From Candidatus Omnitrophota bacterium (GTDB taxonomy: Bacteria > Ratteibacteria > UBA8468 > B48-G9 > DTJG01): DNA of 64,000 nucleotides. The position numbers and the translations under genes were made by a program. The notes beneath the pieces were generated by a model. It saw only the letters and a program-made list of their open reading frames with translations, had not been told where the DNA came from and did not search any database. The stretch covers positions 47,086 to 111,085 of the forward strand of contig JAMWCD010000008.1 of assembly GCA_023818965.1 (NCBI GenBank). The letters are read 5' to 3'. How positions within the stretch are numbered: position 1 is the first letter of the stretch; every line of letters starts with the position of its first letter. Of this stretch, positions 1 through 27,506 are shown in pieces.

Positions 1-1143
1 GATATTTACGCAAGAAAAATTGATCTTACAATATCACCAATCAAATTAACAAACAGTTCAAGTGTAGAAAAATCAGACCTCTGTTTTTCTCCTGATGGTT
101 CATCCATTGTTTATACTGGTACTACATCAAATGGAAGGCAAATTTTTTCTCTTCCAGTAAAAATTACTGCAAACAATATCGCTGTGACAGGTTTGCCAGT
201 GAATCTTACACAAACACCAGGAAGTGAAAATTTTCAACCATCTTTTTCTCTTGATGGCAAAAAAATTATTTTCATCTCAACAAGGTCAGGTAGTCCCACC
301 ATTTTTGTAATGAATTCTGATGGTTCAGGTCAATATCAACTTCTTTCAAATTTTGCCTCGTATCCACAATTTTCTCCATGGGACAGTGATAATAGAATTA
401 CTTTTAATTCACAAAGTGTAAAGATTGCAAATCTTGACACTGCCACAGTAGTAGATGTTAATCCATCTATTACACCATCACAAAAATTTTCCTGGGCTAA
501 AAGCATACCTGAAAAAGTAAAGGTAACAAGACAGTTTGTTTATAACAGGGTGGACAAAGACCTTGCATACTATTATTGTTTGAATATCAGTGTGAATAGA
601 TTAAATCCACCACAATCATTCATTCTTACTGAAGAATTGCCCGAGATAGCAAAGGGAGCAAGTGCAGACTGGAAGATTACAGATGCCTGGTTCAATGATA
701 CTCAATTGTTCCCCCTGACAAGTAGTGGCAATACTACAGGTGTAGTAAAATGGATTGTTTCAAACAATATTGGTTCAATATTTCCTCTGACTGATGGTAC
801 ATTAAAACTTAAAATTGAATTTCAGGGTACACCTGTTGAAGGAACCTGGAATTTCATCAATGGAAATATTACAGATGGAACAATACGAACAACTATTTCT
901 GGTGATTCATACATTGTTTATGGTGAACCCGATTTTCCTGCTGATACTGATGGAAATGGAAAAATTTCAGATGCTGAACTCCTTTACACAATTGAAAGGT
1001 GGGCTTCAAATTTAACAATTCATGGATTTCCTATGGATTTGTCTCAGTGGGATTTCTGGTTGCTAAAGACAATTGATTTCTGGGCTAAGGGTGGTTATAT
1101 TTTTGCACCTATTAGTGGAGAATATAACTGGAATAGCATATGA
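1..1143 (+). CDS. secreted TolB-like PD40 beta-propeller protein (5' partial), C-terminal DUF11-like domain plus dockerin-like 'DTDGNGKISDAELLYTIERWA' tail
   Basis: Frame 1 is open from base 1, so the ORF enters from upstream of the window. It shows PD40-like repeats ('FSPDGSSIVY', 'FSLDGKKIIFISTRSG', 'VMNSDGSG'), a DUF11-like block ('EELPEIAKG...KWIVSN') and a D-x-D-x-N-G-x-I-x-x-x-E-L-L-Y motif. Confidence 0.6.
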   Translation, partial: DIYARKIDLTISPIKLTNSSSVEKSDLCFSPDGSSIVYTGTTSNGRQIFSLPVKITANNIAVTGLPVNLTQTPGSENFQPSFSLDGKKIIFISTRSGSPTIFVMNSDGSGQYQLLSNFASYPQFSPWDSDNRITFNSQSVKIANLDTATVVDVNPSITPSQKFSWAKSIPEKVKVTRQFVYNRVDKDLAYYYCLNISVNRLNPPQSFILTEELPEIAKGASADWKITDAWFNDTQLFPLTSSGNTTGVVKWIVSNNIGSIFPLTDGTLKLKIEFQGTPVEGTWNFINGNITDGTIRTTISGDSYIVYGEPDFPADTDGNGKISDAELLYTIERWASNLTIHGFPMDLSQWDFWLLKTIDFWAKGGYIFAPISGEYNWNSI

Positions 1144-1175
1144 ACTTTTATTACTACTACAATGGAGGTTTTTAA

Positions 1176-2993
1176 ATGTTGAACACAGGATGGAAAAGAT
1201 TGATGTTTGCATTATTCATCTTATTTTTTCTTTCAAGTGCCTATGCTCAAATTACAGTAAATGCAGTAAGGACTTTTTCTCAATCAACATATTTGCCAGG
1301 ACAGAGTATTGATGTGACGCTGGCAATTGAAATCACAGGAATGCCAACAGCAGTAATTATTAATGAAACAATACCTGAGACATGGCAGATAACATCATCA
1401 AACCTGCCAATAAATAGTTTTATTGCTCCATCAACTTATAAATGGCTTCAATTTAATGCCACAGGAGTCTCATCAGTTGAAATAAAATATTCTGTAAGTA
1501 TTCCTGAAGATGCTACCGGTGATCAAAGTTTTACAGGACTCGTTGAATATCTTGAAAATGAAACGATGATAACTACTACCATTGGTGGGCAAACAACAAT
1601 TACACTACCACCATCAGGTTTTGGGATTTCCCCTCAATCACTTCATTTTGGAACAACTGATACATCAGCAACTGTTACACTGAGTAATCTTGGTGGTTCA
1701 TCTATTAACTGGACATCATCAATTGCTACTGATGATGGTATTACGGGCTGGTTGAAAGTTTCTCCAAATTCTGGAACGATTGCTGCTGGTTCTAATGCAA
1801 CTGCTACTGTTCAAATTACAAGGTCTCTTTTAACAACAGGTTCTCATACAGGTTCAATTACTTTTACCGCAAATACAAGTCCTGAAACTTCTATAGTTTT
1901 AAGAGTTTCCGCGATTGTTGGAAGTCCTTCTCCTGTTAGTAATTTCACTGCAAGTGCCCTTTTCAATTCAATACTTTTGTCCTGGCAGAATCCTTCAAGT
2001 TTCACTGGAACAATAATTTTCAGGAAAAATGTTCCACTTTCGTGGGATGATAAACCAGTTAATGGAACAAGTTATACGATTGGAAGTCGGCTTCCTGGCG
2101 GTGCAATATGCGTATTCAAAGATACTGTTAATCAGGACACATCATTTATTGATGATACAGCAGTAGAAACATCATATTACAGGATTTTCAGTTTTGATGA
2201 TGGAAGTGCCCCATCTTATTATCCTTTGTATTCTGAAAAATATTCTGATAGCCCCAGTACTGGAATAATACCTTTGCCGATTGAAGTGATATGGGAAGGA
2301 GATAATTTATTCACTGAAACTCAGGTTTACAATGACCCATATGGTTATAATCTTCTTGCTAAATTCAATACATCAGGAGTTAGTGAAGCAGACCCAAAAG
2401 TTTATGTTGGTTATGTGCCTCCAGATTATATCCCTCCAAAACTTACCTCTGTTACAGGGTTCAAAAACACTTATTTATTGAGTTCAAACTTTACTCTAAA
2501 TCCTGATGATACTGTTGACATAAGAATACCTGTGCGACTTGATGAACTGGCAACAGAAGAAACAAGCGTGACTCTGCATAAGACCCATGTTTATCACTGG
2601 CCTGGTGCAAATAATAAATGGGAAGACATTACATCTCAGGTGATAGAAAGAAATCTTAGCCAGATGTATATTACTGTTCGATTAAATGGAAATCAATTAA
2701 AGGGAAATGACTATTTCTCACTCGGCATACCACAGCCCTCTGTAGGTTCAGGTGGCGGTTGTTTTATTGCAACTGCTGCTTATGGAACACCATTTGCGAA
2801 GGAAATTAATGTTTTAAGGAAATTCAGAGACCAGAAACTTTTAAAAACAAAAATGGGAAGTGCCTTTGTAAGATTTTACTATAGACACAGTCCACCAATT
2901 GCAAGTTTTATCAAGGATAAGCCAGTGTTAAGAGCATTTGTGAGAGGAATTTTAAAGCCCATTGTATGGCTTTGCGGGAAATTTGTGGTTTAG
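1176..2993 (+). CDS. secreted surface protein: DUF11-like domain, FN3-like module, CFIATAA-type C-terminal anchor domain
   Basis: Signal peptide 'MLNTGWKRLMFALFILFFLSSAYAQ'. 'ETIPETWQIT...YKWLQF...IKYSVSIPEDATGDQSFTG' matches the recurrent DUF11-like family. An FN3-like 'LLSWQNPSS' follows. The C-terminus 'GSGGGCFIATAAYGTPFAKEINVLRKFRD...YYRHSPPIASFI' is shared with the next gene. Confidence 0.7.
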   Translation: MLNTGWKRLMFALFILFFLSSAYAQITVNAVRTFSQSTYLPGQSIDVTLAIEITGMPTAVIINETIPETWQITSSNLPINSFIAPSTYKWLQFNATGVSSVEIKYSVSIPEDATGDQSFTGLVEYLENETMITTTIGGQTTITLPPSGFGISPQSLHFGTTDTSATVTLSNLGGSSINWTSSIATDDGITGWLKVSPNSGTIAAGSNATATVQITRSLLTTGSHTGSITFTANTSPETSIVLRVSAIVGSPSPVSNFTASALFNSILLSWQNPSSFTGTIIFRKNVPLSWDDKPVNGTSYTIGSRLPGGAICVFKDTVNQDTSFIDDTAVETSYYRIFSFDDGSAPSYYPLYSEKYSDSPSTGIIPLPIEVIWEGDNLFTETQVYNDPYGYNLLAKFNTSGVSEADPKVYVGYVPPDYIPPKLTSVTGFKNTYLLSSNFTLNPDDTVDIRIPVRLDELATEETSVTLHKTHVYHWPGANNKWEDITSQVIERNLSQMYITVRLNGNQLKGNDYFSLGIPQPSVGSGGGCFIATAAYGTPFAKEINVLRKFRDQKLLKTKMGSAFVRFYYRHSPPIASFIKDKPVLRAFVRGILKPIVWLCGKFVV

Positions 2994-3125
2994 TTTCTTT
3001 GAAAATTTCTTAGTCTTTTCCTCCTCCATTCTCCCCCTTTTTACAAAGGGGATCTAAGGGGGATTTAAGGTAGTTTCTCCCTTTTCCAAAGGGAGATGCA
3101 AGAGGGATTTTGAATGTAGAAGGTT
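2994..3125. repeat. G-rich palindromic repeat array (families F1, F2)
   Basis: Units 'tctccccctttttacaaaggggatctaagggggattt' and 'gtagtttctcccttttccaaagggagatgcaagagggatttt'. Confidence 0.8.
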
Positions 3126-3161
3126 AACAGAAATTTTTGATTGTTAAAGGAGAAGCATAAT

Positions 3162-6100
3162 ATGAAAATCAGGAATTTAATTTTATCACTTGTTTTGACA
3201 GGCATTCTATTTACTCAGTACGCAAACTCAAAGGTAACGACTAATTCTGTAAGGTCATATGTTGTTGCCAATCAGGGAATTCTTCCGAATACAAATAGCG
3301 TTCCGCATTCGCCATACAGTCAGGTAATCGGTAGAAATGCAATTGGTGAGGGATACATTATAATTTTTGGTATGAACCTTGCCTCAGATTCTGGTGCGAC
3401 GAGTCCGCAACGTCTTGTCAGTGTAACATTAACAATGGCGCCAACACCTGGATTTGATGTTGACTCGTCTGTTATTATCGATCGTTCTGGAACAATTCTC
3501 GGTGTTACAGGTGGAGTTGGAACAATAACGATACCTGCCGGACGCAGGCCAATATTACCACCTGATGATACTGGTGGATATGCTGGAGATGATTTTTTTG
3601 TTGCGATAAGAACATCTGATAATTGTCTTGATGGCAGCAGTGCAACTTTTTCTATTCCTGCACTTGGTGTTTCTGTTACTCCTGTTCTTGAAGGTGATGT
3701 AACCTGTCCAGGTGGAACCACTGTGGCAATAACGTGTGAAATGCTTATTGGCGACTTATTGCCTGAAGAATATGATAATGCTCATTCAATAGGAATACCT
3801 CAGTATCCTTCTTATTTTCAGTGGCAGCCAGGAGAAATGATAAGACCAAGATATGACCATATTCCATTTGATTATCAATATGCAATCAGTCCATTGACAT
3901 TGCCTACTGTTCCACTGATTCACAATGTTCCACAGGTTGTTCCCTGGGAGACACCAACAGCAGTTCTCGGAATTGCATGCGCTCAAAGAAATGTTACTCC
4001 GAGTGGGGATCCTGTTCCTGCGATTCAGGACCCAGGTGAAGGATTGAATTCAATTACCTTGACTATTACAGATGTTGGAGATAGTGATTTTGATCCGAAT
4101 AATTTTTTCAGAAATAGAGATATTACTTTTGTTAACCCTGAAAATCCATATTCTATCCCGGGTATCACGCTGTGGAAGGATACCAATAATAATGGAATTT
4201 GGGACCCAGGAGATACATTATTAGATTATCAAATGAGTCCTTTTACTCCAACAGGCAATGTTAGGGAATGGACAGTTTCTCTTTCTCCAGTATTAGGAGA
4301 ACCTGATACTATTGATGACCTCTGGGATGGAACTGGGGGAAAGGGGAAATACGATTATTTTATTGTAATCACAATTGCAAGTTCAAATGATTCAGGTACA
4401 CCCAATGTTTCAATTGGTGGTGACTTCAAAATATGGATACCACGAGGTGGTGTTTTGTTTGGTCCTCTTTCTTTTCCCCAGCGATATGCGGGAATATCTC
4501 AAGGACAGGTAAAAACAACTTATCACAATCTTTATGTTGAAAATATCTGCCAGTCATTTGTTGATCCAACAGATACAGGTGATGCACCTGATTTAACATC
4601 AAATGTGATTCCTGTCTTTGGTTTGAATATTGCTTCAGGACCAGCAAATCTTTTTCCGAATGAATACATACAGAGAGTCAGAATTGACCTTATTGCTTAT
4701 GAAAACATAGACCCTGATGATATCGCTCCATTGCAGGAAAACCAGTACTCTGGAATTACATTATGGCGAGATAACAAAAATCCGCCTGCACAGGTTTCAT
4801 CTGTCATAGCACTTGGCAATTTTGATAGTACCGATACATTTATTCCCTGTAGATTTAGCAGTAATCCATTTGGTCCTTATGATTTCCACTGGGCATCAGA
4901 TGGTTATGACCCATCAGTTGGTGCTTACAGATACCATACATATATGACAACATCAGGTTCTTTAACTGACACGGGCTATGTTTATTTTGATGACATTGAT
5001 CCTGATACTTCTACAGTTCACAGGGGAGATGATTTTTTCATTTGCTTAAGAACAAATAATACCCTTGCTTATGGTTCAAAATTCAGGATTCAGATACCGT
5101 GGAATGAAATCATACTTGAGGGAAGCAAACAAGCCAGGTCAAGTCACGAGTTTTTCTCAACACTTGTCACTGGAAATGTTTTTGCAAAAATCACGGGTCT
5201 TGTCAGTCAGGGAGCAACCATTGGCCCACAGAGTAGTCCAACGCCAGTAATGAAACTACAAATAAATGATAACAATTCAGGAAAAAATCCTTCTTTAACA
5301 GGGCTTACAGTTGAATTTTATAATCGTGGTGGATTTACTCTTGATGACCTTGCTCCATTTACCACGCTTTCTCCGTGGTATGAAGCAGGTACGAACTGGT
5401 ATAATATTACCAACTTCAGTCCTGATGCATTAAAACAATGTGGTGTTGTGATTTACAGGGGAACAGATGCTGGACCTGATTTGAATGACCCTGTGATAAT
5501 CAAAAGATATAAATTTTTAACTTCATCATGGTTTGATACACCCACGGGTTATGTTTTTGAATTTCAAAATCCTGTTTCAATTCCCTGTACTCTTTATGTT
5601 GTCATACGAACCTCATCTTCAATGAGTGCAGGCGATGCATTCAGTGTTGGTATTGTCGGATGGGGAGCAACTCAGATTGATTGGGATACCTGGGCATCAA
5701 GGGCAATTCCTGTTGTTGATAAAAATGGTGTTAAGAGCAATGCCTTTGTCAGAAAGGTCACAGAGCCGTTTAATTCAACGTTAGGTGGCACTCTTGATCT
5801 TTATGCTACACCAGGATTTGATGGAATTACGATCAACTGGGTAAACAGGACAAATGTCACACAAAATGAATTCATCAGTTATGAAATCTGGAGAACAGAT
5901 AGTATCGGTGGTGAAACAGATATAACAAGAATTTCAGTTCCAGCAGGTTGGTCTGCAACTTCATATTTTGAAGCAGTTTCAAGGCAGGGTACAGGTGGAC
6001 TTCTTGAAGGAGTAACTTATAATTATAGATTGGTTATGACTTATTCAAGGGCCGGGACAACTCAGACAGTTGTATCAAACAGGGTTAGTGCGAAAGTGTA

Positions 6101-6791
6101 TGGTTTCCCGTACAATATGAGACCATCAAAACCAACAGCAGTTGCTTCAACAAATGGAATTGCAATCTGGTTCAGGGATAATACTTATGATCCATACAAA
6201 GCAAATAGCTGGAGAATTCAAAGAACAATTTATGGTAGAAATGAGTTCACAGACATTACCACAGTTGATACAATCCCAACATTTTATAATCCATATCTTG
6301 ATAATACTGTTGCTTTTAATGTGATGTACCAGTACAGAGTGATTGCTCAGAGAGATGCCAATTCACCTGGGTCTGGAACTGTTGAATCTTATCCATCAGA
6401 CCCTTCAGACAGAACTGCAATCTATGGTACTGATCCTGGAACAGGTCCTGTAAATACACCAAGCGGTGGAGGTGGTGGATGCTTCATTGCGACTGCTGCC
6501 TTTGGAAGTCCTCTTGCGAAAGAAATTGAAATCTTACGACAGTTCAGGGATAGGATACTACTTGAATTTTCAGCAGGAAGAAAATTTGTTGCATGGTATT
6601 ATAGTCATAGTCCGGTTGTTGCTGATTACATCAAAAAACACTCTGCGTTAAAAATCATTGTAAGAATAACATTGTATCCATTGATTGCATTTGCATGGAT
6701 TGTGCTTCATAAAATTTTCCTTTATTTCACTGTAATTTTGTTGAGTTTGATTTTGTTGTTATTGATGAGAAGAAATTTCCTTCATCTTTGA
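3162..6791 (+). CDS. giant cell-surface protein (about 1209 aa) with FN3-like modules and CFIATAA-type C-terminal domain plus TM helix
   Basis: Long ORF. ATG 3162 is preferred over 3141 because AGGAG lies 8 nt upstream. N-terminal signal peptide. FN3-like 'ITINWVNRTNVTQNEFISYEIWRTD'. C-terminus 'GGGGGCFIATAAFGSPLAKEIEILRQFRDRILL...WYYSHSPVVADYI' followed by a hydrophobic helix. Confidence 0.7.
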   Translation: MKIRNLILSLVLTGILFTQYANSKVTTNSVRSYVVANQGILPNTNSVPHSPYSQVIGRNAIGEGYIIIFGMNLASDSGATSPQRLVSVTLTMAPTPGFDVDSSVIIDRSGTILGVTGGVGTITIPAGRRPILPPDDTGGYAGDDFFVAIRTSDNCLDGSSATFSIPALGVSVTPVLEGDVTCPGGTTVAITCEMLIGDLLPEEYDNAHSIGIPQYPSYFQWQPGEMIRPRYDHIPFDYQYAISPLTLPTVPLIHNVPQVVPWETPTAVLGIACAQRNVTPSGDPVPAIQDPGEGLNSITLTITDVGDSDFDPNNFFRNRDITFVNPENPYSIPGITLWKDTNNNGIWDPGDTLLDYQMSPFTPTGNVREWTVSLSPVLGEPDTIDDLWDGTGGKGKYDYFIVITIASSNDSGTPNVSIGGDFKIWIPRGGVLFGPLSFPQRYAGISQGQVKTTYHNLYVENICQSFVDPTDTGDAPDLTSNVIPVFGLNIASGPANLFPNEYIQRVRIDLIAYENIDPDDIAPLQENQYSGITLWRDNKNPPAQVSSVIALGNFDSTDTFIPCRFSSNPFGPYDFHWASDGYDPSVGAYRYHTYMTTSGSLTDTGYVYFDDIDPDTSTVHRGDDFFICLRTNNTLAYGSKFRIQIPWNEIILEGSKQARSSHEFFSTLVTGNVFAKITGLVSQGATIGPQSSPTPVMKLQINDNNSGKNPSLTGLTVEFYNRGGFTLDDLAPFTTLSPWYEAGTNWYNITNFSPDALKQCGVVIYRGTDAGPDLNDPVIIKRYKFLTSSWFDTPTGYVFEFQNPVSIPCTLYVVIRTSSSMSAGDAFSVGIVGWGATQIDWDTWASRAIPVVDKNGVKSNAFVRKVTEPFNSTLGGTLDLYATPGFDGITINWVNRTNVTQNEFISYEIWRTDSIGGETDITRISVPAGWSATSYFEAVSRQGTGGLLEGVTYNYRLVMTYSRAGTTQTVVSNRVSAKVYGFPYNMRPSKPTAVASTNGIAIWFRDNTYDPYKANSWRIQRTIYGRNEFTDITTVDTIPTFYNPYLDNTVAFNVMYQYRVIAQRDANSPGSGTVESYPSDPSDRTAIYGTDPGTGPVNTPSGGGGGCFIATAAFGSPLAKEIEILRQFRDRILLEFSAGRKFVAWYYSHSPVVADYIKKHSALKIIVRITLYPLIAFAWIVLHKIFLYFTVILLSLILLLLMRRNFLHL

Positions 6792-7347: not shown

Positions 7348-7363
7348 TCAACAATTTTAAAAA

Positions 7364-8140
7364 ATGAAACAGAATAGTTTTAAATTCAATTTGGCTCGGA
7401 TAGAATTAGTCCCGGCTATTCTTTTGTTGATTTCTTGCTTTCCTTTATTTTCTGCTGATATAAAAAAGCCGTCTCCGAATTTGACTGCAATTTTACAGAA
7501 AAATTTATTTTTTTCTCCCCTTGAAACAAAAAAGGATACCGAGCAATTACCTGTTTTCATCACCAGCATCAAAGAACCTGAACCCCTTGATAAAACTTAC
7601 TCTCTTTCAGGTACATTTGTTTTTACTGATGAGCCCGAAAAAAATACTGCTGTTTTGATTGAAAATAGTTCTAAAAAGATAATCTTTTTGAAAAATGGCG
7701 ACATCATCAATGGTAACAGGGTTATTTCAATTGAAGACAATGGAGTTTTATTTCAATCAGGTTTTGGAGAAAAATTTTTATTGACACAATCAGGAATAAA
7801 GGCATTAGTTCCACAACCAAAAAGATTTTATTTCAGGGTAAATCTTAAATCTGCAATTCAATATTTAACAATGAAACCCGATGTTGTTTATTCAATCAAA
7901 TTCTCTCATGTTGACAGCCCCAGTGGTTTCAAGGTACAAGAAATAGAGCCACAGAGCATTTTTGAATCAGCAGGACTTGGTTTGAACGATGTTATTACAC
8001 AAATAAATGATAAGGTCTTGCAAAGCCCAGATGATGCAATGAGTGCATATATTGATATTCTCAAATCAGGGAAAAAAATTGCACTTGTTAAAGCAATTAG
8101 AGATAAAAAATTGGTTGAACTTGTCTATTTTCTTGAATAA
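7364..8140 (+). CDS. GspC-like secretion protein (N-terminal TM/signal, HR-like segment, C-terminal PDZ domain)
   Basis: N-terminal hydrophobic segment and a C-terminal PDZ-like 'GFKVQEIEPQSIFESAGLGLNDVITQINDKVLQSPDDAMSAYIDILKSGKKIALVKAIRDKKLV'. Domain order is like 28776..29627. Confidence 0.5.
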   Translation: MKQNSFKFNLARIELVPAILLLISCFPLFSADIKKPSPNLTAILQKNLFFSPLETKKDTEQLPVFITSIKEPEPLDKTYSLSGTFVFTDEPEKNTAVLIENSSKKIIFLKNGDIINGNRVISIEDNGVLFQSGFGEKFLLTQSGIKALVPQPKRFYFRVNLKSAIQYLTMKPDVVYSIKFSHVDSPSGFKVQEIEPQSIFESAGLGLNDVITQINDKVLQSPDDAMSAYIDILKSGKKIALVKAIRDKKLVELVYFLE

Positions 8141-8143: not shown

Positions 8144-9046
8144 ATGAAAAAAATATTTGTTTTCGGATTGTGTGTTTTCATTATCGCAGGTTGTGGCAAA
8201 AAACAATCTCCAGTCCAGCAGATGCAGAAGCCACCTGTTTCTTCAGAAACACAGATTATTCAGACAACAAAAACTCAACCAAATATTACTTCCTCAAAGC
8301 CATTGTATCCATCAAGAAAAGAAGAACAAAAAGTAACACCTGAATGGATTAAAAAACTTGTTAGTATTCACAATCAACAATACCAGCAGTGGCAGGAAAA
8401 ATCATCAACTGAAACATCATCTGTTTTGATTGCTTCTTTAATTTCATCAAGTGTAGTTCCATCCTCTCCATCACCCACCAGTTCACCTTCAATTCCAGCG
8501 TCAGGTGGCTCTGTTTCACAGCCATATTCGCCAATTATCAGGCAACCTCAAGCAATGCCATCGGTTTCAACTGCTTCAGGAAGACCTTCTTCAGGGATAA
8601 TCTCTGCTGCGGTATCAGGTAGTTCCTCTGGCACAGCACCACAACCTGGTTCTGGAGGAACAAATCCACCGCAGGATCAGCAACCTCCATCACCAGAAAC
8701 ACCACCAGAACAGCCACAGCAATCATCAGGTGTATCTGTGACAAGGTCAATTCAATCATCATCAGGTAGTGCCTATGTAAGGTTGGATGTTAAAGTCACT
8801 GATAACAGGGTCAATGGAATTATTGTGAGTGAAAACATTCCTGATGGATACCAGTTAATGACTTCGTCTCCAGCAATTTCAAAGAGAGTTGGAAACACAG
8901 TTAAATGGCTTTTTTATGGAACAAGTTTAACTGACCAACTTATCACGTATGAAATTAAAGGGACAGGAAAAGCAACCATTTCAGGAAGTTTCAGTTCAAG
9001 CACTGGAAGCGGAACAATAACAGGTGATTCTCAAATAGGTCAGTAG
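8144..9046 (+). CDS. lipoprotein with Pro/Ser/Gln-rich linker and C-terminal DUF11-like domain
   Basis: Lipobox 'FIIAGC'. Low-complexity PS-rich middle. 'ENIPDGYQLMTSSP...VKWLFYG...ITYEIKGTGKATISGSF'. Confidence 0.7.
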   Translation: MKKIFVFGLCVFIIAGCGKKQSPVQQMQKPPVSSETQIIQTTKTQPNITSSKPLYPSRKEEQKVTPEWIKKLVSIHNQQYQQWQEKSSTETSSVLIASLISSSVVPSSPSPTSSPSIPASGGSVSQPYSPIIRQPQAMPSVSTASGRPSSGIISAAVSGSSSGTAPQPGSGGTNPPQDQQPPSPETPPEQPQQSSGVSVTRSIQSSSGSAYVRLDVKVTDNRVNGIIVSENIPDGYQLMTSSPAISKRVGNTVKWLFYGTSLTDQLITYEIKGTGKATISGSFSSSTGSGTITGDSQIGQ

Positions 9047-9176: not shown

Positions 9177-9212
9177 TTGACACCGTCCAATATTTTGATT
9201 ATTATATTGTCA

Positions 9213-9665
9213 ATGGACGAGAATAAAATTGAATTCTATCGCGGAATTCGTTTGGCTGTCGTTATACTTTGTCTTTTCTTTTTTACTCACTCAACAGCAA
9301 TTCAGGGATTTTTGAAACTTCCTGATAATCCTGCCATAAGAAAATTACCTGAAAAATACAGGGGCGGAGAAATTATTGTTGTTACAATCAATGTCAATCC
9401 ATTTCTTCCAGCAGGCACCAAAATCATAGAAAAAGTTCCTGATGGCTGGGACCTTGTTGCAGCAAATCCTCCTCTTGCAGAGCAACCATTTAGAAATATG
9501 TATGTCTGGAAAATTCCCAGAAAGGGAGAAGTGTTGACATCAATAAAATATGCAGTTTCCATTCCACAGGGAAATATTTCAAGGAAGGAATTTACTGGTT
9601 ACATTGATATTGGAAAAAGTATCCGATTAACAATATCAGGAGACAGACACATATGGAGCGAATAA
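9213..9665 (+). CDS. small secreted DUF11-like domain protein
   Basis: The ORF track starts at TTG 9177, but that TTG is the -35 hexamer of a TTGACA-17-TATTAT promoter. ATG 9213 gives 'MDENKIEFYRGIRLAVVILCLFFFTHS'. 'EKVPDGWDLVAANP...YVWKIP...IKYAVSIPQGN...FTG'. Confidence 0.6.
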   Translation: MDENKIEFYRGIRLAVVILCLFFFTHSTAIQGFLKLPDNPAIRKLPEKYRGGEIIVVTINVNPFLPAGTKIIEKVPDGWDLVAANPPLAEQPFRNMYVWKIPRKGEVLTSIKYAVSIPQGNISRKEFTGYIDIGKSIRLTISGDRHIWSE

Positions 9666-18141: not shown

Positions 18142-18189
18142 ATAATATTTTATCCTGTGTTTTTACTCCTTTGAACCTGGAATTCTCTT

Positions 18190-18674: not shown

Positions 18675-21482
18675 ATGAAAGTCAAAAGTTTGCTGTTAGC
18701 AGTTGCTCTGGCTGCAACTGCAGTGCTTTTCTTAGTCCCGCAGTTTGCAAATGCAGCCATTGGAAATCAGGGTAGAATCTGTTATGTAAAAAATGTGACA
18801 AGGAATGCTGATGGAGTTATTACTCAGACAGGAAATCTTTTTGTAAAAGACCTTGCCACAGGCATTGAACAGCAGGTAACAAACTACACCCTTGGCGCTG
18901 GTAAAGTCATCCTGAACCCAATGTTCAATGCTGATGGAACAAAAATTATCTTCACATCCAATGAGACAGTTTCAGGCGACAATACATACAAGATTTACTA
19001 TGTTTCTGCTGATTCATCAAGTAACACCGGGGTTGGGATTTTGCTTCAAGGTGGGACTGGAAATGATTATAAATATGCTGCGATTTCCCCTGATGAAAAA
19101 ACAGTTGCCTTTGTATGGAGTTCAGCGAGCGGTGATTCCCTCTGGACATACAACAGGACCAATGGTATCTACACCCAGGTCTTTGATGATTCAAAAAATG
19201 GAACAACAATCAAGGATGTTGTGTTTGTCAATGCAACGACCCTTGCCTTTGTTGGGACAAAAAGCGGAATTCAGAATATTTACACTGTTGACCTGACAGG
19301 TCCAACAGCAACTATGTTGACAAACAACACAACAGCCAATGTCCAGTATCTTGGTTTGAAAAGTGCCATCAGGTCTGCAACGGCAGGAAATATGCTGATT
19401 TATAGCAAAAGGACAAAGTCAGGTACTCTGTGGTCACCATGGGACGTTTATGTGACAACATCGCTGATACCGTTTCTTGAACAGAATGTAACAAATACAA
19501 CGATCGCAGGCCAGGATGAATATGAACCCTGTTTCTATGGTGATGATAATGCAGGAAGGGATGTGCAACTTTCTGCCGGTTCAGGAAATATGTTCTATTC
19601 TGCAAAGGTGATTGGTTCTGCAAACAAAATATGGCAGGCAAACTTTTCCACATCTGGTTCAACAAATACTGGAAAGACACAGAGAACAGTTGATGATGAT
19701 GCAGCAGGTCTTCCTGACTGGGGTCCACCAATCATAGAATTAACTCCCACAGTAACTATTGATGACACTGAAATGGCTTTTACACAGGGAGCAGCATCAG
19801 ATGTACAGATATTCAAGGCAGGCTTTTCAAATGGGGCACTTGGTTATGCAACTCGCGTGCAAATTACAACATCAGGCAGTGGCTATATGCAGAATCCATC
19901 CCTTGGTGCAGCAAGGATTGTAGCTGATGTTGGTGGTCCGACAAATCCAACCCAGATTATAAGGACAAACTCAGATGGTTCAGGCAGGGTTGACTTTGTT
20001 AATCTCACTGGCTCTGTAACAAAAGTCAAATCACCGTCCATTACTCCTGATGGGAAATGGGTTGTTTATGTTGCTAAGGATGGAACTACGTGGAAGATAA
20101 AAGCAAAACTTCTGACAAAGACCGCTGCTGATCTATCTGTAGATGTGAAGGCAGCGCCAGAACAGTCAGAGGCAGAAATTGAAGACCCTGTTGTTTCTCC
20201 TGATATGGGAAGCATTGTCTGGGTAGAAAATCTCGGAGGTCAGAGAACAATCTATAAGCAGGGTGTCACATTTGACGCAACAGCAGGCACTGTTTCACTT
20301 GTTGGTTCTGCCCAGATTATGGGTGGAAATACAAGCCAGGTCTGGAATGATAGCCAGCCGAGTTTTTCACCTGATGGTTTAAAAATCATCTTTGTTTCTA
20401 ACAGAGATGGCACAACATACATCTATACAATGGATGCCAATACAGGCCTTGGTGTAACAAGATTCCCTGTACCTGCAGGAATAACAAATCCTGCATACCC
20501 TGTTTATAATCCAATCAATGATGGTTCAATTGCTTTTGTTGCTGATAGTGGTGCAGAAAGACATATTTACACAGCAACATCAGCAGGAGCTACTACTGAC
20601 CAGTTCCCTGTTGGTGTAGGTGCAACATTGAATGGAGAGAAATTCTCCTGGGCAATTAAGAGAGCACCAGGTGAAATCACTGCTACAAGAACACTTCAAT
20701 CAAGGGTTGCCGCTGGAGAAACATTAACTTACACCATCAAGATTGATGTTGATGATGGTAAGAAACCTGTTGGTTATACCCTTGAAGAAGTCGTTCCAAA
20801 ATGGACAGTGGGTACCATCAAGGTTGACGGTACAACCACTACAAATTTCTACGAGCTTCAGGATACTCCGGTTGCTGGACTTACAACACTCAGGTTTGTA
20901 TTTATGAACATTTCTGGCGTAGCAGGGGATGTTTCAGACCATATCATTACTATAAATTTGACTGCCACTGATTCTGGAACAAAGAGTTTCTCAGGCACTA
21001 TCAATTACACCATGGATGGTGCTGATCAAACAGCAAATGTCACTGGAAACGGTAGTTTGCTTGTTTCCAAACCATACTGTCCTGTTGATATTTACAACGA
21101 TAAGGGTGAAAGAGGAAAGCCGAATGGAATCATTGAGGACAGGGATTTGCTGTATGCTATCAATGCCTGGGCAAACAGTTTGCAACTTCCTGGATATGGT
21201 CCTGCCTGGCCCGCAAACCCGGACACTCACTGGGATGGAATTATTCTCGCTGTGGTTGAAATCTGGGCAAGCCGTGCAACAACACGAGGGTACTACTGGA
21301 AGTCAAGTGGCGCAGCACCAAATCCTGCCCAGGTTGCAGCATCAGAGGCATCAGAAAAAGTCGGTCGGTACCTGTACATTGGAGACAGGGATGGTGATAC
21401 CACTGTAGATACATACTCTCGTTCTGGTGCATCATCCGGTGTTCCTGAAATGTACTGGACACAGGGTAAGTGGTCTGATTGA
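18675..21482 (+). CDS. secreted TolB-like PD40 beta-propeller giant protein (935 aa) with C-terminal DUF11-like domain and dockerin-like 'DRDLLYAINAWANS' tail
   Basis: SD 'aggagg' 5 nt upstream. Signal peptide 'MKVKSLLLAVALAATAVLFLVPQFANA'. PD40-like 'FNADGTKIIFTSNE', 'ISPDEKTVAFVWSS', 'FSPDGLKIIFVSNRDG'. The C-terminus is paralogous to 22984..26313. Confidence 0.8.
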   Translation: MKVKSLLLAVALAATAVLFLVPQFANAAIGNQGRICYVKNVTRNADGVITQTGNLFVKDLATGIEQQVTNYTLGAGKVILNPMFNADGTKIIFTSNETVSGDNTYKIYYVSADSSSNTGVGILLQGGTGNDYKYAAISPDEKTVAFVWSSASGDSLWTYNRTNGIYTQVFDDSKNGTTIKDVVFVNATTLAFVGTKSGIQNIYTVDLTGPTATMLTNNTTANVQYLGLKSAIRSATAGNMLIYSKRTKSGTLWSPWDVYVTTSLIPFLEQNVTNTTIAGQDEYEPCFYGDDNAGRDVQLSAGSGNMFYSAKVIGSANKIWQANFSTSGSTNTGKTQRTVDDDAAGLPDWGPPIIELTPTVTIDDTEMAFTQGAASDVQIFKAGFSNGALGYATRVQITTSGSGYMQNPSLGAARIVADVGGPTNPTQIIRTNSDGSGRVDFVNLTGSVTKVKSPSITPDGKWVVYVAKDGTTWKIKAKLLTKTAADLSVDVKAAPEQSEAEIEDPVVSPDMGSIVWVENLGGQRTIYKQGVTFDATAGTVSLVGSAQIMGGNTSQVWNDSQPSFSPDGLKIIFVSNRDGTTYIYTMDANTGLGVTRFPVPAGITNPAYPVYNPINDGSIAFVADSGAERHIYTATSAGATTDQFPVGVGATLNGEKFSWAIKRAPGEITATRTLQSRVAAGETLTYTIKIDVDDGKKPVGYTLEEVVPKWTVGTIKVDGTTTTNFYELQDTPVAGLTTLRFVFMNISGVAGDVSDHIITINLTATDSGTKSFSGTINYTMDGADQTANVTGNGSLLVSKPYCPVDIYNDKGERGKPNGIIEDRDLLYAINAWANSLQLPGYGPAWPANPDTHWDGIILAVVEIWASRATTRGYYWKSSGAAPNPAQVAASEASEKVGRYLYIGDRDGDTTVDTYSRSGASSGVPEMYWTQGKWSD

Positions 21483-21753: not shown

Positions 21754-22656
21754 ATGGCTCGTCAATACTTTGCTGTGCGGGTGAAATTTGTTGCTACTTT
21801 TTTGTTTGTTTCCTTTTTCTCGTCCTTTGTTTTTGCTGAAAACACTGCAGTTAGAGACCTTCCTGAACAATACACGCCTGGCTCAAATATTAATGTTTCA
21901 ATTTCTGTGACTATGGACCCGCAGTATCCAACAAACGGTGTTGTTATAACAGAAAACCTGCCGCAGGGCTGGGCAATTGTTCAGTCAAATCCTTCCTGGA
22001 GCAAATACATCGCAAGCACAAACACCTATAAGTGGCTTTCATTTAGCAGTGGATCCATTGGTTCTTTTAATATCACATACACTCTTAGTGTGCCTGGCAA
22101 TGCTTCAGGTAATTATGAATTCACTGGTACAATTTATGATGGCTATTCAATAAGAGATATTACTGGTGATACAGTAATTTCTCAATTGCCACAGGTTGGT
22201 TCGCCTGTTTTTTCTCCGCAGCCCGGAAATTTTTATAATTTTTTTCCTGATGTAGAAATCGCCTGTTCCACAGAAAATGCTGTAATTCATTATACAATTG
22301 ATGGAAGTGAGCCCGATGAAAATTCTTCAGTTTATTCATTACCGCTGCATATTACACAATCAACAACAATAAAGGCGCGCGGATATAAACAGGGTATGTC
22401 GCCGAGTTCAATTGCACAGGGTGTTTACAATATTGAGATTCAAAAAGGAGATATCAACAGGGATGGAATAATTGATATTTCTGATGTGATTTTGTGTTTG
22501 AGGATGGCAGTTGAACTTGATATAACAGTTGACCAGCAGTCATACAGCAAGCCATATAATGATTGGTTGATTGCAATTGCTAATATGAATGATGACTCAG
22601 TAGTTGATATTTCAGATGTGATTAAGGTTTTGAGAAAGGCGATAGAGCTTGATTGA
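21754..22656 (+). CDS. secreted protein: DUF11-like domain, chitobiase/hexosaminidase-C-like (Fn3-associated) domain, C-terminal dockerin type I module
   Basis: 'ENLPQGWAIVQSNP...YKWLSF...ITYTLSVPGNASGNYEFTGTIY'. 'ACSTENAVIHYTIDGSEPDENSSVY...TTIKARGYKQGMSPSS'. The dockerin has two 'D-x-N-x-DG-x-x-D-x-S-D' segments: 'GDINRDGIIDISDVILCLRMAV' and 'ANMNDDSVVDISDVIKVLRKAI'. Confidence 0.75.
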   Translation: MARQYFAVRVKFVATFLFVSFFSSFVFAENTAVRDLPEQYTPGSNINVSISVTMDPQYPTNGVVITENLPQGWAIVQSNPSWSKYIASTNTYKWLSFSSGSIGSFNITYTLSVPGNASGNYEFTGTIYDGYSIRDITGDTVISQLPQVGSPVFSPQPGNFYNFFPDVEIACSTENAVIHYTIDGSEPDENSSVYSLPLHITQSTTIKARGYKQGMSPSSIAQGVYNIEIQKGDINRDGIIDISDVILCLRMAVELDITVDQQSYSKPYNDWLIAIANMNDDSVVDISDVIKVLRKAIELD

Positions 22657-22983: not shown

Positions 22984-25900
22984 ATGAGTGTGAAAATAAT
23001 GAAATTTTTAACAATAGGACTTCTTACAATTTTTGGACTTGTAATTATTGCGAATGCAGCCAGTGTTTCAGGTCCAGGAACAATAAGAGTCAGGGCAGGT
23101 GGAACAGGAAGTTTTTCTTCAAACACATACACTGCGACTTATGGAACTGGAGACAGTGGTGATTTTATATGGACAGAAACAGGGACTATTCCTGGAGGGT
23201 TCATTTCAATTTCACGGAATCCTCCATCGCCTTTTTCAACAGCGACCCTTAGTGTTTCTGCGTTTTCAGGGACTACGCCTGGTTCTTATGATATCCGTGT
23301 GAATGCCTATCCTGCTACTGGTACTGCTGGAACACGTGCTGTTACAATTATTGTTGTTGAAGGTCTTGGAAGTATTTCTCCAACGTCATTGCCTGATGGA
23401 AAGGAAAATACGTCGGTCAATGTTCAATTTACTGTTTCAAGTGGCACAGGTAATTACGAGTGGAGTGTTTCAGGTGCGCCATCTGGTGTGACAATGAATA
23501 GTTCAACAGGACTTTTGTCAGGTGCACCATTACAGGGTACTGCTGGCAATTATAATTTGACTATTTTTGTGACTGATAATACTGATCCTGTTCAGAGTAC
23601 ACAGATTTCAATTCCGTGGAGAATTTTACCTGCGTATATTCCACTGTCAAATCAGGGACAGATTTGTTATGTGAAGAACATTGTCAGGGATACAAATGGC
23701 ATTATTACAAGCACTGGCGACCTTTATGTGAAGAATTTACAGACAGGAGTTGAAAGAAGAATTACAAATTACTCAACAACTGGAACAGGAGCAATTTTAA
23801 ATCCAATGCTCACTCCTGATGGTTCAAAGGTTCTTTATACATATAGCCCCAATCCATCAACAACAAATTTCAGGATTTATCTTGTCAGTACACTGTCAAC
23901 TGTTTCAGGAACAAACCAGGGTTTGATTTTGAAGAAAAATAATCAGGAAGCAATACCATCTACAATGAATACAAAGTATGCTGCAATCTCTCCTGATTAC
24001 AATGGTTCTTCTGGTCTTATTGTTTTTACTTACGAAAAAAGTGATAGGTCAGAACTATGGCTTTACAATTTTTTCACTGAAAGTTTGAGTCAGTTGAGGT
24101 CAGAAGCAAATATGTACATCAGGCATCCTGTATTTTTGAATACAGGATCCATCGCATTTGTTGGCGTGAAAAATGGAGTGCAGGATATCTATGTGATTGA
24201 TACAAATGGAACAAATTACAGGAAACTTACCACAAATGTACCCATAAGTCCTGAATACGATAGAATCCAGAGCGGGTTTAGAAATCCGAATTTGACAAAT
24301 CCACTTTTGATTTATGGCAAAAGATATTATGATAGCCAGAGGTACAAATACAGCGACTGGGATGTTTATGTTTCTGAACTGGATATGACTTCAGGAACCC
24401 TTACTGAATACAGGGTAACTGAGACACCGGATATTGATGAATTCAGCGCTGCGTTTTTTGGCGATTCAACAGAAAGGGACTTTGTTACACTTGTTAGAGA
24501 CAGTGGACAGATGTTTTATGAAGCAGCAGTTATTCCAGGAATACGCAATGTCTGGCAGACAAACTATGACACAGTTACACCAGCCAATAGCAATGCTTTG
24601 AAGCAGGAAAGGACTTCAGAAAGTAGTCATACAGGGCTTGTTAACTGGTCTCCACTTCCACCATCAGAAGTGCCTGAAGCAATTGCAATTGAAAATACAC
24701 GGCTTGTTTATATCAAACAGGCAGGTTCGTATAATGAAGTTTTCAGGTCTGACTGGACTGGTTCTGGTTTTGATACAACTGGAACACAATTAACTCCTTC
24801 TGGCTCTGACGCACATAAATCAAATCCATCAATCTCAAGAAATGGTGGACTTATTTCATTTACAATGGGCTCAATACCAAAGGATGTTTACAGAATAAAT
24901 AACGATGGTTCATCTCTTACAAGATTTGCAGGTCAATATCCCTATAATACCGATTATTCAACACTTTCACCTGATGGAAACTGGATTGTTTATGTTAGAA
25001 AAGAAACACCCAACGGCTATGCCATTTATGCAAAACCATCAACGAACGATTATTCAGGACAGGAAACAGCGATAGTAACAGGAATTTCTGCCAGTGAGAT
25101 TGATGCACCATCTTTTAATCCTGATATGACAAAAATTATTTATGCAGCGCGAGACCCTGGCGGATATTTTGATATTTACTATGTACCTGTGACAGTTGAT
25201 ACCATCAATAAAAAAATCACACCACTTTCTTCGCCTATAAACCTTACAAACACAGAATTTATTAATGAAAGAATGCCTTCATTCTCAAACACAGGCACAA
25301 AAATCATCTATTGTTCTGACAAAGAACTTACACCCGAAGAATATGAAATTTACACAATGAATGTCAGTGGTTCAGGAATTGAAAAGGTTGTTTCAGGACC
25401 AGGTCATATGTGGCCCATTTACAGTCCTGTTTCTGATACTGCAGCAGGTACTGATGTAATCGGGTATATTGAAAATGGCGAAATTATCTATGCGACACTT
25501 TCACGCACAGCACCACCTGGTTCTCCTTCAGGACAGAATCCAGTTTCAAATGTCATAAACACAGGAATTTCTGTACCAGCAGGTTATGAAAGATTTGGTT
25601 GGGGTAGGAAAAGAGGGGATGGAACAATTATTGCAACAAGAACTCTTCCAGCATCACTTGCAGCAGGCCAGCAAATAGTATACCAGATTTCTGTTGATGT
25701 TGATGAGGCAAAAATACCAAATTCATTTATCATCAATGAAACATTTTCAGACCAGTTTACTGGGGTTAGTGTCCTTGTTGATGGAACAACTGCAAACACA
25801 ACAATTTATCAATATCCGTCAGCAGGGCTTCAGACATTGAAACTTACCTTTATGAATGGGATGAATGGCGGAGTAAAAGACCATGTGATACGGATAACAA

Positions 25901-26313
25901 TGACAACACCATCTGCCACTGGTACTCAGGCATTTGTTGGCAACATCAATTATTCAATTGATGGTATTCCAAGGACAGAAACAATCAGTGGGAATGGTTC
26001 AGTAAGTGTTGATAAACCATATATGCCTGTTGATATTTATGATGCAAATGGCTTGATTTCTGCTGATGGAATTATACAGGACTTTGATTTACTCTATGCC
26101 ATAGATGCTTGGGCAAGGGATGCTCAATTGACAGGTTACGGCATTGTCTGGCCACAAAATCTTGCGAACTGGGACAAAATTCTGATTGGTTTTGCTGGCA
26201 ATCCTGGAATTATTCCAATATGGGCAAATTCAACATATCAGGGTGGTTATACTTATGATGCATCAAATCCTGGCGCTGCATATGAGATGTACTGGAAATC
26301 TGGGAATTTCTAA
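22984..26313 (+). CDS. secreted giant protein (about 1109 aa): putative Ig (He_PIG-like) domains, TolB-like PD40 propeller, C-terminal DUF11-like domain and 'DFDLLYAIDAWARD' tail
   Basis: Signal peptide 'MKFLTIGLLTIFGLVIIANA'. The start may be GTG 22990, which sits 6 nt after the SD 'caggag'. 'PSGVTMNSSTGLLSGAPLQGTAGNYNLTIFVTD' is Ig-like. Blocks such as 'QGQICYVKNIVRDTNGIITSTGDLYVKNLQTG' align with the 18675 protein. Confidence 0.8.
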   Translation: MSVKIMKFLTIGLLTIFGLVIIANAASVSGPGTIRVRAGGTGSFSSNTYTATYGTGDSGDFIWTETGTIPGGFISISRNPPSPFSTATLSVSAFSGTTPGSYDIRVNAYPATGTAGTRAVTIIVVEGLGSISPTSLPDGKENTSVNVQFTVSSGTGNYEWSVSGAPSGVTMNSSTGLLSGAPLQGTAGNYNLTIFVTDNTDPVQSTQISIPWRILPAYIPLSNQGQICYVKNIVRDTNGIITSTGDLYVKNLQTGVERRITNYSTTGTGAILNPMLTPDGSKVLYTYSPNPSTTNFRIYLVSTLSTVSGTNQGLILKKNNQEAIPSTMNTKYAAISPDYNGSSGLIVFTYEKSDRSELWLYNFFTESLSQLRSEANMYIRHPVFLNTGSIAFVGVKNGVQDIYVIDTNGTNYRKLTTNVPISPEYDRIQSGFRNPNLTNPLLIYGKRYYDSQRYKYSDWDVYVSELDMTSGTLTEYRVTETPDIDEFSAAFFGDSTERDFVTLVRDSGQMFYEAAVIPGIRNVWQTNYDTVTPANSNALKQERTSESSHTGLVNWSPLPPSEVPEAIAIENTRLVYIKQAGSYNEVFRSDWTGSGFDTTGTQLTPSGSDAHKSNPSISRNGGLISFTMGSIPKDVYRINNDGSSLTRFAGQYPYNTDYSTLSPDGNWIVYVRKETPNGYAIYAKPSTNDYSGQETAIVTGISASEIDAPSFNPDMTKIIYAARDPGGYFDIYYVPVTVDTINKKITPLSSPINLTNTEFINERMPSFSNTGTKIIYCSDKELTPEEYEIYTMNVSGSGIEKVVSGPGHMWPIYSPVSDTAAGTDVIGYIENGEIIYATLSRTAPPGSPSGQNPVSNVINTGISVPAGYERFGWGRKRGDGTIIATRTLPASLAAGQQIVYQISVDVDEAKIPNSFIINETFSDQFTGVSVLVDGTTANTTIYQYPSAGLQTLKLTFMNGMNGGVKDHVIRITMTTPSATGTQAFVGNINYSIDGIPRTETISGNGSVSVDKPYMPVDIYDANGLISADGIIQDFDLLYAIDAWARDAQLTGYGIVWPQNLANWDKILIGFAGNPGIIPIWANSTYQGGYTYDASNPGAAYEMYWKSGNF

Positions 26314-26895
26314 AAGTAGATTTATCCACAACAACATTATTAAATCCCCCTTTTATAAATCCCGCTCGTTTCTTCCCCCTTTCATAAAACCTCCTCTTTT
26401 AACTTCCCCCTTTTTCAAATTCCCCTCCAATTTCCCCCTTTTTCAAAGGGGGACAAAGGGGGATTTAAATCCACCCCAGCCCTCCTTTAGAAAAGGAGGG
26501 AGAAAAATATAATTTCCCCCTTTTGTAAAGGGGGACGCAGGGGGATTAAAAAGGAGGGAGAGGAAGGAAGGTAAAGGGGACTAAAGGGGGATTGAAAAGT
26601 AGGGAGAAGAATATAATTTTCCCCTTTTTCAAATTCCTCCTCCAATTTCCCCCTTTCATAAAGGGGGATTGAGGGGGATTTAAGGTAGTTTCTCCCTTTT
26701 TCAAAGGGAGATGCAAGAGGGATTTTTAGCCCATCCTTTTGGCTATTCTTTGCCTCGTTTCCTCTCCCTTGAGGGGAGAGGACAAAAGGTGAGGGTGGCT
26801 GTGTAGGAGAATAACCTCCCCTTGCATCCCCTCCTTTCAGGAGGGGAAAGAGGGGAGGTGGTAAAGGTGGATTAGGGGGGATTTTAAGAGGCAAA
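26314..26895. repeat. large palindromic repeat array (F1, F3, F2, 140-bp composite, F4)
   Basis: Contains the second copy of the 140-bp composite unit at about 26718-26860. Confidence 0.85.
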
Positions 26896-26903
26896 ATTGA
26901 ACA

Positions 26904-27506
26904 GTGAATAAAATGATGAAAAAACTAATTTTTTTGGTTTCTTTAATTGGTTTTTCATTTTGCTTTTCAGAAACAACTGGAACAAGAACATTGCCTGCAA
27001 CCTATACTCCAGGTGGTATAATTACTGTTAGAATTAATGTCAGTGTTGACCCTGGTGTTACTGGCGTTATTGTGAAGGAATACCTGCCATCTGACTGGAT
27101 TGTTTCAGAGACAATGTCAGTGCCTGCACCAGCGAAACTTGAATTTGAAGGCGGCAACAGAATTTACAGCTGGTTGAAATTTGATTCTGGCGGTGTTTCT
27201 TCTTTTTCCATAACATACAAAATTTATGTTCCTTCTTCTGCAAGCGGCGATTATTCCTTTTATGGAAGTGTGTTAACTCTTGGTAATCCTGACGGCAGTG
27301 AAATATCAGGTGATAATATTCTTCGCGGTAATATTGGAGATATCAATAATGATGGAGTTGTTGATATTTCAGATGTGATTTTGTGTTTGAGGATGGCAAT
27401 TGGACTCAGTGAACCCGATATTGCGAAGGCAGATTTAAATAATGATGGAATCGTTGATATTTCTGATGTGATACTGATATTGAGAATTTCAATCGGGTTA
27501 TTGTGA
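26904..27506 (+). CDS. secreted DUF11-like domain protein with C-terminal dockerin type I module
   Basis: Signal peptide. 'EYLPSDWIVSETM...YSWLKFD...ITYKIYVPSSASGDYSFYGSV'. Dockerin 'GDINNDGVVDISDVILCLRMAIGLSEPDIAKADLNNDGIVDISDVILILRISIG'. Confidence 0.8.
   Translation: MNKMMKKLIFLVSLIGFSFCFSETTGTRTLPATYTPGGIITVRINVSVDPGVTGVIVKEYLPSDWIVSETMSVPAPAKLEFEGGNRIYSWLKFDSGGVSSFSITYKIYVPSSASGDYSFYGSVLTLGNPDGSEISGDNILRGNIGDINNDGVVDISDVILCLRMAIGLSEPDIAKADLNNDGIVDISDVILILRISIGLL

Follow-up and report, generated by a model that had tools for sequence, protein, structure and literature searches.

What is the module that recurs in nine predicted surface proteins encoded side by side in a bacterium of a poorly known candidate phylum, and are its copies still being multiplied and diversified? 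The locus lies in a 64 kb stretch of DNA (hereafter, the window) from a Candidatus Omnitrophota bacterium (GenBank assembly GCA_023818965.1, contig JAMWCD010000008.1, positions 47,086 to 111,085). Its island region, positions 1..27506, contains 13 large open reading frames (ORFs), all on the + strand, which we designate A to M in their order; the module is carried by A, B, E, F, G, J, K, L, and M. A first-pass annotation had described a DUF11/CARDB-like domain, probably a lineage-specific adhesion or recognition module under diversifying duplication. By profile homology and predicted fold, the nine segments are members of the DUF11/CLIPPER superfamily, with an Arg/Glu/Gly (R/E/G) triad in place of the residues that form an isopeptide bond in the structurally characterized CLIPPER domain. 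We consider it likely that these R/E/G single copies serve as stable extracellular domains for presenting or binding some partner, within an old and conserved cell-surface cluster.

The nine segments named at first pass are genuine + strand ORFs, each of which carries one copy of the same module (coordinates are given in Table 1). The module is all-beta and spans about 105-138 amino acids (aa), rather than the roughly 90 aa initially assigned to it, the earlier motif having ended before the last strand. The copies align over their full length, and this alignment does not collapse in spite of pairwise identities of 14-45%: an Arg near the start, the Glu of 'xxExxP', the Phe of 'F-x-G', and a Gly of the last strand are invariant across all nine, and the final strand reads 'I-x-G-[DN]-x-x-[IV]'. 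As regards the motif first proposed, its 'PG' and 'GW' elements are missing in several copies (A, E, J, L). Differences among the paralogs cluster in loops and insertions; the J module carries an insertion of ~14 aa, and a 'TTxREGD' loop and a Cys before 'PG' are conserved among G orthologs only.

Hidden Markov models (HMMs) built by leaving out one copy at a time were searched against 669 six-frame pieces and retrieved 8 of the 9 copies, with E values of 1e-10 to 1e-26. The same 8 copies were retrieved, at E values of about 1e-13 to 1e-29, by an independent profile made of 288 domains from 91 database proteins, from which the window proteins and their close relatives or orthologs had been left out. 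The copy in A was retrieved neither by its leave-one-out HMM nor by the independent profile. Its protein is collinear with J and L from the propeller through the module to the tail (BLASTP E 5e-23 with J and 1e-22 with L), the copy matches the independent profile when aligned together with its ortholog (hhalign probability 89%, E 2.2e-6), and it retains the invariant R, E, F, and G. As placed by collinearity, profile-profile comparison, and these shared residues, A is a divergent member of the family. Finally, a search of the six-frame translation of the whole 64 kb with the nine-copy HMM revealed no tenth copy; all nine lie inside 27.5 kb, with zero in the remaining 36.5 kb.

The guess of a DUF11-type beta-sandwich is borne out by three lines of evidence. 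First, the K module matches Pfam DUF11 (PF01345) above its gathering score (29.6 vs 24.6 bits, E 9.1e-7). Second, the window family was compared with 63 canonical DUF11 repeats, which had been gathered by jackhmmer from a Pfam-delimited repeat, independently of the window profile, in proteins with 14-31 Pfam DUF11 stretches. The two profiles align over 80 columns (hhalign 96.1%, E 3.6e-9), and the 'ExIPxGW' core falls on the DUF11 'tDtLPxG' core, as had been supposed; the window profile also matches giant DUF11 repeat proteins many times each. Third, an AlphaFold2 model of lipoprotein G, computed from an alignment of 7 orthologs and 7 window paralogs, is confident (block-mean predicted local distance difference test score, pLDDT, of at least 94 across residues ~50-161) and contains ten strands. 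Its top Foldseek match in the PDB is 9IFR (E 1.9e-5, target-normalised template-modelling score, TM, of 0.71), followed at lower ranks by YcnI (rank 3-5, 0.62), cohesins (0.40-0.53), and complement MG domains. Profile comparison and predicted structure agree on a DUF11 fold. For the A region the model is poor (pLDDT 53) and its top PDB match, again 9IFR, lends weak support. The 'CARDB-like' half of the initial description is only loosely supported. No window copy matches CARDB (PF07705) at E<0.1, and any relation would go no further than the E-set clan, to which DUF11 belongs. Sub-threshold matches to NPCBM_assoc and bMG10 were found for K and G, and NCBIfam has no family for any of the modules, TIGR01451 being matched by K only at E 0.067.

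The structure 9IFR is the crystal structure of a domain from the Acinetobacter silvestris fibrillar adhesin B9T28_05395, and CLIPPER is the new name given to DUF11, a domain of CnaA-like fold in the E-set clan (10.1101/2025.04.25.650565). In this structure an isopeptide bond joins Lys715 to Asn806, with Asp748 as the catalytic residue; the bond provides CLIPPER with thermal and protease stability, and some DUF11 domains have no isopeptide bond (10.1101/2025.04.25.650565). In the HMM alignment to the 9IFR chain, the invariant Arg of the window modules takes the place of the Lys in the first strand, and the Asp of 'LNDTLGQGL' is matched by the invariant Glu. The extended hhalign alignment likewise pairs R with K and E with D, and places the Gly of 'F-x-G' on the Asn of 'L-x-N'. 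The triad positions are Arg/Glu/Gly in the window copies, with Ser at the Gly position in E. In K, the triad R40-E73-G131 has a spacing of 33/58, equal to that of Lys715-Asp748-Asn806 in 9IFR; in G the spacing is 31/59, and R53, E84, and F141/G143 are all located within predicted strands. As for the canonical DUF11 repeats, in which the first-strand Lys, the catalytic Asp, and an Asn of the penultimate strand make up the covalent clasp, K, D, and N are kept in at least 80% of the copies.

The database distribution of this variant was analyzed by an exhaustive HMMER search with the nine-copy profile against 1.84 billion cluster representatives (50%-identity clusters), which yielded 3077 representatives at E<=1e-3, of which 703 reach E<=1e-10. 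These hits form two groups, namely giant canonical DUF11 repeat proteins with many weak matches each, and proteins 300-800 aa long in which 1-6 copies are matched strongly and over their full length. Homologs elsewhere can hold 2-6 tandem copies; for instance, a protein cluster of Candidatus Altiarchaeota gives a strong match with tandem copies. With 3077 matching representatives, Altiarchaeota included, the module cannot be called lineage-specific, as had been claimed. A word-indexed homolog search, for which the alignment of all nine copies and the single K module served as queries, returned nothing, which reflects the limit of its sensitivity given what HMMER found. Among 601 domain hits from the best 150 of the 3077 representatives, 268 carry R/E/G and 29 R/D/G, and the combinations of R with N or K with G do not occur. 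Because such mixed combinations are absent from these 601 domains, the three triad positions switch together. In the R-E-G proteins PF01345 is the commonest Pfam family (28/64 at E<=0.001); next in frequency are bMG10, NPCBM_assoc, and BatD 'DUF11 like'.

Judging from the aligned residues, an isopeptide bond is chemically impossible with Arg and Gly, and the window modules fall outside the bonded sub-class represented by 9IFR with its Lys/Asp/Asn triad. Since some DUF11 domains lack the bond, the loss of the triad places the modules outside the bonded sub-class only, not outside the Pfam family. What might hold the strands together instead can be proposed from the same positions. The side chain of Arg, being longer, would fill the space of Lys plus Asn and would form a buried salt bridge with Glu, and the invariant Phe, two residues before the Gly, would sit beside the Arg-Glu pair. 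We tentatively suggest, as a reading slightly less likely than not, that the R/E/G form may be a distinct family, only marginally modelled by Pfam, of uncultivated bacteria (Ratteibacteria, Omnitrophota) and archaea (Altiarchaeota). In such a family, a buried Arg-Glu bridge capped by Phe would replace the isopeptide strand clasp, making the domain a non-covalent counterpart of CLIPPER used as a tip or stand-alone module.

Several observations weigh against the assignment to DUF11/CLIPPER and the triad equivalence. Apart from K, the other eight copies have no DUF11 match in Pfam at E<0.1; indeed, eight of the nine are without any Pfam family. A sequence search of the PDB gave nothing significant (E 0.17-0.9), 9IFR itself appearing at E 0.2. 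Furthermore, the R-to-K and G-to-N equivalences are found at the low-confidence ends of the hhalign alignment, and in copy E the triad Gly is replaced by Ser. Finally, canonical DUF11 domains usually form tandem stalks within the central part of long surface proteins, whereas the window proteins have one copy each.

The architecture of the carrier proteins is consistent with an extracellular location. All eight carriers whose N-terminus is inside the window start with a signal peptide or a lipobox, the lipoboxes being IAGC in E and LSGC in G. In B, the signal peptide is followed by the module, then by BACON_2, and finally by an anchor of the CFI-box-CTERM type (nt 2760-2966; NF041770, 97 bits). 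The order in K is signal peptide, module, CHB_HEX_C, and dockerin (nt 22447-22653), while in M the signal peptide and the module are followed immediately by a type I dockerin (nt 27336-27503; Dockerin_1, 26.7 bits vs a cut-off of 22.9), to which the C-terminus of K is homologous. A, J, and L consist of PD40 propellers, the module, and a two-helix dockerin-like tail; L begins with He_PIG before the propellers and is paralogous to J over its entire length (35% identity, E 1e-135). The tails of A, J, and L (928-1140, 21072-21479, and 26017-26310, respectively) contain a single EF-hand/dockerin-like loop, 'D-x-[DN]-G-x-I-x-D-x-[DE]-L-L-Y-[AT]-I', and then a Trp-rich segment. The tail of A is predicted as two helices, and none of the three tails has a significant match among the family models, the GC-type dockerin giving E 0.11. 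In E, F, and G the module is the only folded domain of small tethered proteins; in E it is preceded by a Ser/Pro-rich linker of ~170 aa, and F carries a signal or anchor at its N-terminus. The short lipoprotein or secreted versions, as well as the pairing of the module with dockerin (K, M), PD40 propellers (A, J, L), and CFI-box-CTERM (B) in the larger proteins, are therefore as initially described.

The first dockerin repeats of K and M (22447-22517 and 27336-27406) share 87% DNA identity across 71 nt, unlike the K and M modules, which are only 39-40% identical as protein. This likeness could be due to gene conversion or to a strong constraint on the dockerin.

Since the module combines a stable DUF11-type fold with secretion signals, a tip or stand-alone position, and old paralogs, an extracellular presenting or binding role can be proposed. 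The module would be a stable unit for presenting or binding a partner on the cell surface, with loops specific to each paralog. It is found in three placements: at the far N-terminal tip of proteins whose anchor is C-terminal (B via CFI-box-CTERM, K and M via dockerin), between the PD40 propellers and the dockerin-like tail (A, J, L), or as the sole folded domain of tethered small proteins (E, F, G). A role in adhesion or recognition, as first suggested, is plausible.

What the partner might be is where the alternatives arise. The modules might be cohesin-like receptors for the dockerins of the cluster (those of K and M, together with the similar tails in A, J, and L), so that anchored B and the lipoproteins E and G would dock the dockerin-bearing proteins on the surface. 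Indeed, the G model has significant Foldseek matches to cohesins (2XDH, E 3.5e-5; 2JH2, 1QZN, 5K39, and 3FNK), dockerins or dockerin-like tails are present in 5 of the 9 carriers, no Pfam cohesin was detected in the large island ORFs, and module-plus-dockerin architectures recur among database homologs. However, the TM scores of the cohesin matches (0.40-0.53) are well below the 0.71 obtained with CLIPPER, sequence homology indicates DUF11 and not cohesin, and dockerins are rare in other R-E-G proteins (3/64 by Pfam, 12/150 by motif). Taken together, these data make a cohesin-like function improbable in our judgment.

Glycan binding, by which the module would direct its carriers to carbohydrates, would fit the partner domains BACON_2 in B and CHB_HEX_C in K, the weak NPCBM_assoc matches, and the CBM2 matches returned by Foldseek for the A model. 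These CBM2 matches, however, rest on a model with a pLDDT of 53, no carbohydrate-binding module family is significantly matched, and the conserved aromatics fall on DUF11 core positions ('vtW', 'Gl') instead of on an additional surface platform; we regard glycan binding, too, as quite unlikely. YcnI binds copper through an N-terminal His. A YcnI-like copper-binding role was considered and rejected, the mature N-termini of B, K, and M having no N-terminal His.

Whether the extracellular DUF11/CLIPPER-type modules are recent products of duplication can be judged from related loci. The closest homologs of G are encoded by metagenome-assembled genomes (MAGs) named by NCBI Candidatus Ratteibacteria and Candidatus Omnitrophica; a 697-nt contig (L007), 99% identical, also matches G. 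In a Ratteibacteria MAG (L004), A, B, C, D, E, F, G, H, and I follow one another in the window order, with an IS200-type transposase after G and without the J-K-L-M block. Another locus (L003) shows the same order from the end of C through I, which is the extent of its contig, without the transposase. Orthologous whole proteins are 52-89% identical. The modules are 56-84% identical between orthologs, compared with at most 45% between window paralogs; for instance, the A module is 77% identical to that of its L004 ortholog, and the F module is 70-84% identical to those of its orthologs. The module has diverged less than the protein as a whole in E (71-72% vs 52-54% identity) and in F. No DNA-level similarity was found between the module-coding segments. 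The conserved order, the greater closeness of orthologs than of paralogs, and the lack of DNA-level similarity imply that the duplications predate the divergence of these species. Judging by these comparisons, each copy is maintained under conservation, the duplications are old, and the cluster is an old, conserved cell-surface locus of a Ratteibacteria/Omnitrophota-like bacterium with no recent expansion.

These results bear directly on the view of a lineage-specific adhesion or recognition module that is still duplicating and diversifying under positive selection. The confinement of all nine copies to 27.5 kb, with none in the other 36.5 kb, the concentration of paralog differences in loops and insertions, and the lack of the J-K-L-M block in the syntenic L004 could all be expected of such a process. 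It is contradicted, however, by the breadth of the database matches, which extend to Altiarchaeota, by the orthologs of A, B, E, F, and G found in the same order elsewhere with module identities above those of the paralogs, and by the absence of any DNA-level repeat between copies. The sole close comparison available, that of G with L007, shows six differences and a ratio of nonsynonymous to synonymous substitution rates (dN/dS) of 0.27, which has no statistical power and speaks neither for nor against selection, and the paralogs and distant orthologs are too diverged for synonymous-site methods. Diversifying duplication, as claimed at first pass, has little chance of being correct, and for A-G it is already largely refuted. 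Even less tenable is the idea that the shared motif reflects only chance or the composition of beta-rich secreted proteins: pairwise identities do fall to 14%, but with leave-one-out and independent profiles both finding 8/9 copies at E<=1e-10 and identical invariant columns in every copy, its probability is negligible.

Other features of the related loci were recorded. An IS200-type Y1 transposase gene lies directly after the G ortholog in L004 (10514-11197), L005 (2788-3157), and L006 (994-1677), and is absent from the window. The reading frames of F and G overlap, by 13 nt in the window and by about 10-15 nt in at least 5 other genomes, which suggests, from gene organization, that F and G work together. 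The F-G pair occupies positions 9177-10138 of the window, 7247-8163 of L001, 2313-3232 of L002, 2002-2963 of L003, 9585-10498 of L004, and 5884-6794 of L008. In L008 it is found without D, E, and H, downstream of mraY-murD-ftsW and a divergent phosphodiesterase-family gene and upstream of a Wzy_C/TPR protein; in L002 an L-like gene comes directly after G. In L004 (17202-20174), the genes directly after I, on its strand, encode another GspC-like PDZ protein and then a radical SAM protein. In the window, the GspC-like (28776-29627) and radical SAM (27764-28771) genes are inverted, and the J-K-L-M block lies between them and I.

The four large ORFs of the island that lack the module are listed in Table 1 together with the nine copies. 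In H, a His/Cys insert of ~35 aa, KYHRGNCSYL...GYTPCSVCKP (residues 1394-1428; 14736-14840), breaks up a CarboxypepD_reg repeat; it resembles a small metal-binding element and has no match in NCBIfam. The cluster is flanked by the two GspC-like PDZ proteins, D and the one encoded on the minus strand at 28776-29627, both below the family cut-offs for type II secretion system protein C, and it includes the DUF1559 pseudopilin I; the cluster may be tied to a type II secretion-like export route.

Table 1. Module copies and neighbouring genes of the island (window coordinates).
Feature	Position	Strand	Details
Module in A (partial ORF 1..1143, 5' truncated)	514..927	+	residues 172-309; most divergent copy, two insertions
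Module in B (1176..2993)	1251..1607	+	residues 26-144; leave-one-out E 2.6e-21; independent profile E 4.9e-24
C, 1216 aa, CFI-box-CTERM anchor	3141..6791	+	NF041770 97 bits; no Pfam match; L004 ortholog 71% identical
D, GspC-like PDZ, directly upstream of E-F-G	7364..8140	+	PDZ found; GspC models below cut-offs; syntenic in L003, L004, L005
Module in E (8144..9046)	8732..9043	+	residues 197-300; leave-one-out E 3.9e-10; independent profile E 6.9e-13
Module in F (9177 or 9213..9665)	9333..9662	+	residues 53-162; leave-one-out E 5.4e-11; independent profile E 2.2e-14
Module in G (9653..10138)	9797..10135	+	residues 49-161; copy used for the confident AlphaFold2 model
H, 1906 aa, fn3 and at least 10 CarboxypepD_reg repeats	10557..16277	+	Pfam/NCBIfam; orthologs in L003, L004
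I, DUF1559 pseudopilin	about 16689/16713..17447	+	Pfam/NCBIfam; orthologs in L003, L004
Module in J (18675..21482)	20673..21071	+	residues 667-799; leave-one-out E 1.9e-11; independent profile E 1.5e-14
Module in K (21736 or 21754..22656)	21844..22185	+	residues 37-150; leave-one-out E 6.4e-26
Module in L (22984..26313)	25624..26016	+	residues 881-1011; leave-one-out E 1.1e-12; independent profile E 8.1e-14
Module in M (26904..27506)	26976..27329	+	residues 25-142; leave-one-out E 5.9e-21

Short palindromic repeats based on runs of G/C take up nearly all the intergenic gaps of the cluster (2992-3160, 6838-7357, 9039-9160, 10244-10515, 16291-16668, 17443-17663, 17993-18505, 21525-21708, 22690-22850, 26332-26890, 27551-27753, and 29657-30000). 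A unit like TCCCCCTTTTTCAAAGGGGGACTAAAGGGGGATTT is present in at least 21 copies and a second unit, AAATCCACCCCAACCCTCCTTTAGAAAAGGAGGG, in 10 copies. Longer duplications are also found: 6956-7115 is 97% identical to 26724-26883, just upstream of M, and 7199-7357, just upstream of D, is 96% identical to 17993-18151. These sequences look like repetitive extragenic palindromic or miniature inverted-repeat transposable elements (REP-/MITE-like); alternatively, they resemble leader or regulatory elements held in common by several genes. In several small ORFs, as well as in the first ~40 codons of the 16575 ORF, what is translated seems to be repeat sequence.

With the DUF11/CLIPPER assignment, nine hypothetical proteins of a poorly known candidate phylum gain a fold and a likely cellular location, and their gene cluster is to be regarded as a conserved cell-surface locus rather than as a fast-evolving island. 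The DUF11/CLIPPER domain itself was already known, and the R/E/G variant is widespread; of wider interest is the large set of DUF11/CLIPPER-like domains in which Lys/Asp/Asn switch together to Arg/Glu/Gly. If the Arg-Glu pair indeed replaces the isopeptide bond, the two forms would offer a natural comparison of the stability of an Ig-like surface domain with and without a covalent clasp, and a separate family model would be justified.

Compared with known systems, the window modules overlap weakly with several families: NPCBM_assoc/NEW3 (PF10633), bMG10 (PF17973), BatD 'DUF11 like' (PF13584), and CARDB (PF07705) are matched on the first half of the module in window copies or in database homologs, none of them at the gathering score on a window copy and CARDB on no window copy at E<0.1. 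With cohesins (e.g., 2XDH, from Archaeoglobus fulgidus) they share a beta-sandwich of similar size and the co-occurrence with dockerins, but the TM scores are lower and there is no sequence-level relation. The likeness to 9IFR and DUF11 is closer: an Ig-like, CnaA-like beta-sandwich of about nine strands (ten are predicted in G), the 'acidic-x-[LI]-P-x-G' core strand, and the occurrence in signal-peptide-bearing surface proteins of both bacteria and archaea. Besides the triad, the modules differ from 9IFR in missing its C-terminal disulfide beta-bulge and, unlike the long tandem stalks of DUF11 proteins, they are employed as an N-terminal tip or as the sole domain.

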